The position numbers were made by a program, and so were the translations under genes. From Thiohalobacter sp. IOR34 (GTDB lineage Bacteria > Pseudomonadota > Gammaproteobacteria > Thiohalobacterales > Thiohalobacteraceae): DNA of 24,000 nucleotides. Location: contig NZ_CP128988.1 in assembly GCF_030406045.1 (NCBI RefSeq), forward strand, positions 383,438-407,437, in the 5' to 3' direction. The notes below the pieces were generated by a model. The model ran no database searches, was not told the origin of the DNA, and saw only the letters and a list, made by a program, of their open reading frames with translations. This document shows, piece by piece, positions 1,273 to 1,488 of the stretch (its first letter is position 1; every line of letters begins with the position of its first letter).

Positions 1273-1335
1273 AGAAGCTAGAAGCTAGAAGCTAGAAGCT
1301 AGAAGCTAGAAGCTAGAAGCTAGAAGCTAGAAGCT
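1273..1335. repeat. Tandem heptamer array (AGAAGCT) x9
   Basis: Nine perfect head-to-tail copies counted directly. Each junction creates a CTAG site. Confidence 0.98.
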
Positions 1336-1383
1336 AGAGTAGGAGCGGCCTCCAGGCCGCGATGCGGCGCAAAACGTTGCTAT
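1336..1383. repeat. Conserved core module shared with 17726-17774 (GC hairpin plus TGnTATAGAAT)
   Basis: GTAGGAGCGGCCTCCAGGCCGCGATGCGG is identical (29 nt) at 1339-1367 and 17731-17759. The following segment is near-identical: CGCAAAACGTTGCTATAGAATCC versus GCAAAACGCTGCTATAGAATCC. Hairpin GCGGCC-TCCA-GGCCGC at 1345-1360. Confidence 0.95.
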
Positions 1384-1488
1384 AGAATCCAGAATCCAGA
1401 ATCCAGAATCCAGAATCCAGAATCCAGAATCCAGAATCCAGGAGTCAGGAGTCAGGAGTCAGGAGTCAGGAGTCAGGAGTCAGGAGTC
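1384..1488. repeat. Tandem heptamer arrays (AGAATCC) x8 then (AGGAGTC) x7
   Basis: Perfect copies counted directly: AGAATCC at 1384-1439 and AGGAGTC at 1440-1488, contiguous and in phase. Confidence 0.98.

Follow-up and report, generated by a model that had tools for sequence, protein, structure and literature searches.

Two intergenic loci with a shared core

We analyzed a stretch of 24,000 nucleotides (the window) from Thiohalobacter sp. IOR34 (contig NZ_CP128988.1, positions 383,438 to 407,437), in which two intergenic spaces carry the same short core set among tandem arrays of heptanucleotide units. Both copies of the core are extragenic, the first (locus 1, positions 1273–1488) lying between a tRNA-Gln gene and open reading frame (ORF) 1739, and the second (locus 2) between rpiA and ilvA. 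The interpretation that we favor, with moderate confidence, is that an insertion of the repetitive extragenic palindromic (REP) family is combined here with heptanucleotide simple-sequence repeats (SSRs) that grew in place by slippage.

Locus 1 is bordered on its left by the tRNA-Gln (CTG) gene (1144–1217, + strand; ARAGORN and Rfam), whose 3′ end is taken into a 25-bp perfect inverted repeat (1208–1262), a terminator-like hairpin with a T-run that is conserved in relatives. After a gap of 11 nt, nine copies of AGAAGCT (1273–1335) and a partial unit AGA (to 1338) are followed by the core, which is 45 nt long (1339–1383), or 48 nt with the preceding AGA included, and then by eight copies of AGAATCC (1384–1439) and seven copies of AGGAGTC (1440–1488), all on the + strand. 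This is the layout given in the preliminary description, and Tandem Repeats Finder and direct unit parsing agree on it, with every block 100% perfect. Folding shows that the core is not one unit and is instead made of two hairpins: a REP head, GTAGGAGCGGCCTCCAGGCCGCGA, at 1339–1362 (+), and a tail hairpin module, TGCGGCGCAAAACGTTGCTAT, at 1363–1383 (+), whose stem GCGGCG/CGTTGC contains two G-T pairs.

The same description also placed a second locus with the same core and orientation elsewhere in the window, and we find it between rpiA and ilvA: the 29-mer GTAGGAGCGGCCTCCAGGCCGCGATGCGG is present exactly twice in the window, at 1339 and 17731, both on the + strand, and gave 0 matches in 100 shuffles. 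The REP head at 17731–17754 (+) is identical to the copy at 1339–1362, and it is followed by a second copy of the tail module (TGCGGGCAAAACGCTGCTAT, 17755–17774, +), so that a single indel and a single substitution separate the two cores across 45 nt. To the right of this core are two copies of AGAATCC, six of AGAAGCC, and 15 of AGGAGCC (17775–17935, +), each block perfect, and then AGA (to 17938). The exclusion of a segmental duplication also holds, as the two copies have no common unique flanking sequence. Elsewhere in the window, Tandem Repeats Finder detected no period-7 array of more than ~3 copies.

In addition to the two-hairpin composition of the core, two features of locus 2 had been missed earlier. 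The first is a run of degenerate, in-register heptamers (GGAAGTC AGGGGCC AGGAGAG AGAGG, 17705–17730, +) to the left of the core, which align with the native GAGGAGT GAGGAGG found in relatives at the locus-2 site. The second is a third, partial copy of the core, a tail module without a REP head (TGCGGCATAAAATGCCGCCAT, 17939–17959, +) that has a perfect 7-bp stem (z = -3.2). This copy is followed by a single AGAATCC and a single AGGAGGC (17960–17973, +), which we read as the unexpanded state of the post-tail sequence and which look like the precursor of the ×8 and ×7 arrays of locus 1.

Identity of the core and its insertion sites

The REP head is laid out as GTAG-GA-GCGGCC-TCCA-GGCCGC-GA, that is, a GTAG tag, a 6-bp GC stem predicted by folding, a 4-nt loop, and a GA. 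We searched for its exact 22-mer with one genome per species and found 140 copies in 115 stretches of other genomes from many phyla, with many copies per genome, compared with two copies in the 24-kb window; 137 of the 140 had enough flank for analysis. The hosts include Wenzhouxiangella and other Wenzhouxiangellaceae, Omnitrophota, Zetaproteobacteria, Thiohalorhabdus, Sulfuricella, Gallionella, and Gemmatimonadales. In 131 of the 137 copies a GA directly follows the 22-mer, the 5′ flank in these genomes is pyrimidine-rich, and in 68 of the 137 an inverted partner head lies within 60 nt, the arrangement of REP doublets forming hairpins (REPINs) or bacterial interspersed mosaic elements (BIMEs). 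An inverted copy of the head was not found within 60 nt of the REP in the window, and the partner there is a different hairpin. It is a striking observation in itself that the same noncoding 22-mer recurs exactly across Omnitrophota, Zetaproteobacteria, Gemmatimonadales, and several orders of gamma- and betaproteobacteria.

REP classes associated with REP-associated tyrosine transposases (RAYTs) in Pseudomonas and Xanthomonas share this head design, for example Pput4, TGTAGGAGCGGCCTTGCGTCGCGAA (Nunvar et al. 2010, PMC2817692), and a superfamily of GTAG-tagged REPs has been set out by Di Nocera et al. 2013 (PMC3733652). By its sequence and predicted fold, the 5′ half of the core is a GTAG-tagged REP, a known kind of element, and the earlier view that the core is dispersed and of a mobile type is borne out. 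When the core and tail were compared by BLASTN with plasmids and phages, the REP head alone was matched, in Candidatus Thiodictyon plasmids, and no match covered the tail. Inverted arms bracketing either locus, as in a miniature inverted-repeat transposable element (MITE), were not found in the window. The hairpins are bracketed by AGA on both sides, and this is not evidence for a target-site duplication because the phase of the arrays explains it.

The tail module has three copies in the window. Its pattern AAAAYGYYGCYATAGAATCC gave 29 matches in JGI metagenomes, all unrelated and mostly in coding sequence, and the junction between tail and array gave seven matches in viral contigs, all coding or unrelated. 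The tail might be a degenerate inverted REP copy, as its stem is built along similar lines, but its end does not carry the matching tag (TATAG versus TCCTAC). In the rpiA-ilvA gap of Thiohalobacter sp. COW1 (stretch L153, ~18495–18525), the sequence CGCTGCTCCCATAGAATCC inside a MITE-like insert resembles the tail end CGCTGCTATAGAATCC except for a 3-nt indel; the resemblance may reflect distant kinship with the tail module or be fortuitous.

We then compared the syntenic regions of eight relatives (L numbers denote the fetched stretches; L150 is Thiohalobacter sp. JALTON01). Across Thiohalobacter spp. and related metagenome-assembled genomes, RpiA is 89–92% identical and ribosomal protein S9 82–88% identical to the window proteins. 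In the alignment, conserved sequences flank locus 2 on both sides: toward rpiA there is AATGATAC, and toward ilvA there is (C/T)TATC(A/T)T, a little ahead of the ATG of that gene. The preliminary description had suggested a comparison with related genomes to learn whether insertion sites are conserved or polymorphic, and the locus-2 site is polymorphic. In L116 and L117/L150 the rpiA-ilvA gap is 80–92 bp and contains no element. In L155 and L156 it holds a textbook REPIN made of two inverted copies of GTAGGTCGGATTAGGCCCGAAGGGCCGTAATCCGAC, from a different GTAG family (GTAGGTCGGATTAGG...), and in L152–L154 it holds nonamer arrays along with other REP- or MITE-like inserts. Because the gap is empty in some relatives and filled by different REP or REPIN elements in others, the core of the window reads as one insertion at a hot spot, and this comparison of sequences identifies the rpiA-ilvA gap as a recurrent landing site for REP-type elements.

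We infer that rpiA and ilvA have their -10 elements in the two conserved boxes that flank this gap. The left limit of the hot spot is TATCAT (17690–17695, - strand), a conserved candidate -10 box for rpiA in the alignment, and the right limit is TGCTATCAT (17998–18006, +), a candidate extended -10 box located 6 nt before the ilvA ATG (18013). The latter sequence is the same in the window and L150, with TGCTATCTT in L116 and TGTTATCAT in L155; the (C/T)TATC(A/T)T core is conserved, preceded by TGC in the window, L150, and L116 and by TGT in L155, and there is no Shine-Dalgarno sequence. With an extended -10-like box placed 6 nt ahead of the ATG, the ilvA mRNA in this lineage is probably leaderless. 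Insertions between the boxes are presumably tolerated because both -10 elements are left intact.

Origin of the heptamer arrays

The clearest case is the AGAAGCT array. The left flank of locus 1 aligns with those of the relatives and is conserved through a single GGGTGAGAAGCTAG in L150 and L154, with AGAACCTAG in L152, and the ×9 array of the window starts exactly at the single native AGAAGCT heptamer of these relatives. The copy number is one in L150 and L154 and nine in the window, where the REP sits immediately after the array. Since the heptamer is native and single in relatives, we conclude that the AGAAGCT array is an in situ expansion of native DNA (the single-copy AGAAGCTAG, present in four relatives, in one of them as AGAACCTAG) and was not imported by a mobile element. 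The local repeat expansion proposed in the preliminary description therefore stands for AGAAGCT; its further proposal that the element seeds the expansion is unproven, with two loci in this genome and no case among the 137 REP copies elsewhere.

Next, we consider how the units are related. All five variants fit AGRAKYY, as had been noted, and a chain of single substitutions runs through all of them (AGAAGCT-AGAAGCC-AGAATCC and AGAAGCC-AGGAGCC-AGGAGTC), with units of both loci being required to complete it. AGAATCC AGAATCC directly follows the core at both loci. Because two or more AGAATCC units come after each full core, a short AGAATCC repeat would already have been carried by the element when it was copied, and the right-hand arrays of the two loci appear to be related at least partly by descent. 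The idea that the arrays diversified independently therefore fits poorly with the common AGAATCC AGAATCC and with a single-step chain that spans both loci. At locus 2, the middle unit AGAAGCC looks like a chimera of its neighbors of the kind that out-of-register pairing would give. The AGRAKYY consensus is explained by descent, so no functional motif is needed. As a conserved functional motif AGRAKYY was tried and rejected: six tandem units occur in 46 viral stretches, compared with 25, 63, and 19 for three permuted controls of equal degeneracy. We also rejected an origin of the arrays as tandem copies of the REP-head sequence TAGGAGC: two units are one mismatch off, but genomes without the REP carry AGAAGCT natively.

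Five array blocks of 6–15 perfect units (in addition to AGAATCC ×2) fall within the definition of long SSRs (LSSRs) for a 5- to 11-nt unit. Heptamer arrays of many kinds are common, and heptamers are the over-represented class of long SSR in bacteria, attributed to polymerase slippage (Mrazek 2007, as summarized in PMC4679880); the heptamer repeats GGGAATC of Xanthomonas and GGGGAYT of Nostoc provide a precedent for slippage (Rehm et al. 2015, PMC4692102). We propose that a ~60-nt nonautonomous element, in which a GTAG-tagged REP hairpin is joined to another small hairpin terminating in ...YAT AGAATCC AGGAGKC, was mobilized in a RAYT-type manner. It would have inserted with the same orientation into two intergenic spaces that are permissive, one after the tRNA-Gln terminator and the other in the stretch separating the -10 boxes of the divergent rpiA and ilvA. 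Replication slippage would then have built the arrays on the spot from 7-nt proto-repeats, with the native flanking heptamer as the source of AGAAGCT and the 3′ end of the element itself as the most likely source of AGAATCC and AGGAGNC. Further types of unit would arise by single point mutations or chimeric misalignment and then be amplified as pure blocks, and the arrays would be neutral, requiring no dedicated function. Because every block is perfectly pure, expansion is likely to be recent or ongoing, and the sites should therefore be hypervariable in the manner of variable-number tandem repeats (VNTRs).

Several points weigh against this interpretation. The tail module was not found beside any of the 140 REP copies in other genomes, so that its place in the mobile unit is suggested by the three copies within the window. 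Pfam scans of 18 large ORFs of the window did not find a Y1 transposase, and no RAYT gene was seen among its main ORFs. A single substitution separates the native AGAAGCT from AGAAGCC of the other locus, a coincidence for which we estimate a chance of ~0.5%. Plain independent slippage does not account for this, and it suggests either that the unit family began at locus 1 and traveled with the REP or that integration favors AGRAG-rich, heptamer-like targets. Slippage is proposed from the arrays of one strain. Finally, with two loci in one genome, coincidence of REP and arrays is not separable from causation.

The alternative that survives best, which we consider possible at rather low probability, is that the array came first: the locus-1 array grew from native AGAAGCT and diversified, the REP and hairpins were inserted into it, and the segment of REP, tail, and array was then copied to the rpiA-ilvA gap, so that the two loci are homologous by descent. 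The five-unit chain, which spans both loci and is rooted in the native AGAAGCT, would be expected from such a history, as would the AGAATCC AGAATCC common to both loci right after the core. Taking out the insert along with one AGA brings the heptamers back into phase at 1336–1386 and at 17936–17962, but the AGA bracket is expected anyway when every unit begins with AGA. The native GAGGAGT GAGGAGG of relatives at the locus-2 site also fits, and copying might have been guided by microhomology to native AGGAG heptamers in the gap. On the other side, AGAAGCT units are not present in the left flank of locus 2, and we know of no mechanism that copies a REP along with a flanking microsatellite.

It is less probable that the element itself triggers expansion, with the REP and tail hairpins stalling replication, or a RAYT nicking beside the REP, and adjacent 7-nt proto-repeats being amplified as a result. 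REPs bind DNA polymerase I and gyrase in E. coli, and RAYTs cleave single-stranded DNA next to REPs. Both REP-plus-tail copies abut long perfect arrays, on both sides at locus 1, with none comparable elsewhere in the window, and one array demonstrably comes from the native flank. The other genomes argue against such a trigger. Of the 137 well-flanked copies of the identical REP head, none has a perfect heptamer array. The 115 loci contain a single array of this type, (GGGTTAA)×9 in L059, and it is ~6.9 kb from the nearest REP head. Across the 115 REP-bearing loci, period-7 arrays of at least three copies are not enriched in noncoding segments that contain REP heads (0.215/kb, 5 in 23.2 kb) compared with those that do not (0.283/kb, 10 in 35.3 kb), as delimited by a crude gene mask, and on this crude density comparison we reject the idea that REPs and heptamer arrays are generally linked in other genomes. 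The REPINs of L155 and L156 lie at the same site as locus 2 without arrays, and the heptamers beside tail copy 3 are unexpanded. Heptamer arrays without a REP are also known, including imperfect CTTGTAT arrays in the sister species L150 and arrays in many viral contigs. Causal seeding by the element, for which the evidence comes from two loci, is possible. Its strongest form, which we doubt further still, would make the REP-plus-hairpin unit a microsatellite generator that turns adjacent 7-nt proto-repeats, whether native (AGAAGCT) or element-borne (AGAATCC and AGGAGNC), into hypermutable arrays; if so, promoter regions such as the rpiA-ilvA gap would receive tunable, phase-variable spacers from a mobile element.

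Heptamer arrays elsewhere have features of their own. In L150, inverted imperfect arrays (ACAAGAK / CTTGTAT, at 5218–5236 and 5540–5570) bracket a gene for a PF05635 protein (23S rRNA intervening-sequence protein) between rpsI and tRNA-Gln, and a third CTTGTAT array lies at 3692–3721. In other genomes and viral contigs, heptamer arrays are often inverted pairs able to form long hairpins (L164, L059, L015, L008, and others), for example AGAATCC... / ...GGATTCT in L164 and GGTGATT / CACCAAT beside a REP in L015.

We regard it as improbable that the arrays are functional, either as phase-variable spacers that separate the divergent promoters of rpiA and ilvA or as transcribed AGGAG or GGA units that bind 30S subunits or a CsrA-like protein (a standby site or sponge). 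Heptamer arrays beside start codons have been proposed as translational regulators (PMC4679880), and some arrays of AGGAGTT or AGGAGTC in viral contigs end 5–7 nt before an ATG (L182 and L195). In the window, both elements point to downstream genes on the + strand (ORF 1739 and ilvA), and 22 tandem AGGAG cores lie on that strand. Against a function, locus 1 is located just behind a strong terminator, the probably leaderless ilvA mRNA would exclude the arrays, and half of the units (AGAAGCT, AGAATCC, and AGAAGCC) contain neither GGA nor AGGAG; in the viral contigs, the orientation of the arrays relative to genes is inconsistent. Rfam, searched at the gathering threshold and at E ≤ 10, gave no family at either locus and only tRNA-Gln and 6S RNA elsewhere in the window. 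A promoter scan did not predict a sigma-70-type promoter at either locus, and the only terminator-like signals in a scan came from the tRNA-Gln hairpin and from two weak stems that lie at the right edge of locus 1 or beyond it. A GGA-repeat sponge RNA of the CsrB/RsmZ type was rejected separately: Rfam gave no match, no promoter was predicted, no terminator was predicted downstream of the locus-2 arrays, and GGA is absent from half of the units. Our preferred view is that the arrays are neutral, hypermutable DNA.

That the short repeats were inflated by an assembly or sequencing artefact is very improbable: assemblers or long-read polishing can misjudge the copy number of perfect arrays, but these arrays, at 49–105 nt, are shorter than ordinary reads, their five distinct units form an orderly series of blocks joined at unique junctions, the sequence comes from one contig of 2.96 Mb, and similar arrays occur in independent assemblies.

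Neighboring features and comparison with known systems

Other repeats and insertions were observed in the window and its relatives. At 12641–12823, just upstream of a DUF3683/FAD-oxidase gene that starts at 12931, there are nested inverted 9-mer arrays (CACGGAANN outer and CCACGAAAT inner). The same nonamer family is found in L150 (8490–8516 and 279–304) and L116 (2208–2249) and as inverted arrays flanking the variable inserts in the rpiA-ilvA gap of L152–L154, and the nonamers may be a lineage-wide repeat or binding-site family. A MITE-like unit of ~257 bp with 24-nt terminal inverted repeats (TGTTAGCCCGCATATTGCACGAAG / CTTCGTGCAATATGCGGGCTAGCA) occupies 21996–22252, and a second copy, inverted and more diverged, lies ~17.6 kb away at ~4158–4408. 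From ~4300 to ~12600, between porin and DUF3683 genes, is a carbon-fixation block with a class II FBA, a CbbO-like VWA protein, and the RuBisCO large subunit. Because the porin and DUF3683 genes are near-adjacent in L150 and L152–L153, with a spacing of 340–520 bp and no called gene between them, this block is an insertion or island relative to the Thiohalobacter relatives. In L152 (10394–10720), L153, and L154, a second tRNA-Gln 3′ end with terminator is present ~150–200 bp downstream of the gene and looks like the att-site scar of an integrated, largely deleted element. A gene for 6S (SsrS) RNA is located at 23401–23583 on the - strand (Rfam, 84.6 bits).

Locus 1, where sister species have a single native heptamer and this genome has nine, offers a clean natural case of microsatellite birth, and stepwise diversification of repeat units is visible in pure blocks. 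The gap between the candidate rpiA and ilvA -10 boxes appears to be a recurrent REP-type landing pad in Thiohalobacteraceae, and the arrays would probably be good VNTR markers for strain typing. If the association of REP and arrays were causal, it would link REP/REPIN mobile elements with long heptanucleotide microsatellites, which are usually studied apart, and would provide a concrete mechanism for microsatellite birth.

Among known systems, the core most resembles REPs and REPINs (PMC2817692, PMC3733652; Bertels & Rainey 2011, PMC3116915). Like them, it has a 24-nt extragenic head of GTAG, GC-rich palindrome, and GA, an identical 22-mer that is abundant in many genomes and often in inverted pairs, and a presence that varies at orthologous sites. 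Unlike them, the REP of the window is paired with another hairpin (TGCGGCG-CAAAA-CGTTGC-TAT) instead of its own inverted copy, the 5′ flank of its head is purine-rich where those elsewhere are pyrimidine-rich, and it is embedded in heptamer arrays, as are none of the 137 other copies.

The Moraxella UspA2 phase-variation repeats (unit AGAT), as cited in PMC4679880, are likewise a perfect, presumably hypermutable tract in a promoter region, here that of rpiA and ilvA, but the flanking genes in the window are housekeeping metabolic genes and not surface antigens, and the arrays lie upstream of the -10 boxes. The short tandemly repeated repetitive (STRR) sequences of cyanobacteria and the TAACTGA repeats of Beggiatoaceae, Cyanobacteria, and Bacteroidetes (MacGregor 2015, PMC4679880) are also intergenic tandem heptamers of sporadic distribution, often near gene starts. 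In those systems one conserved unit recurs at many loci, whereas the units of the window differ between and within loci and one of them comes from local native sequence; none of the five units at the two loci matches TAACTGA or the STRR units.

The closest likeness of the arrays is to the prokaryotic heptanucleotide LSSRs (PMC4679880, PMC4692102), which they share in being perfect, head-to-tail, intergenic heptamers in a gammaproteobacterium, with unit and length varying among related genomes; slippage is the accepted origin of such repeats. The window differs from these in that its units have other sequences that do not form G-quadruplexes, its single-step variants stand side by side in pure blocks, and its arrays lie right against a REP-type element. 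REPs and heptanucleotide SSRs are each familiar kinds of repeat, and their pairing in Thiohalobacter sp. IOR34 is an unusually clean example of the two together, not a new system.

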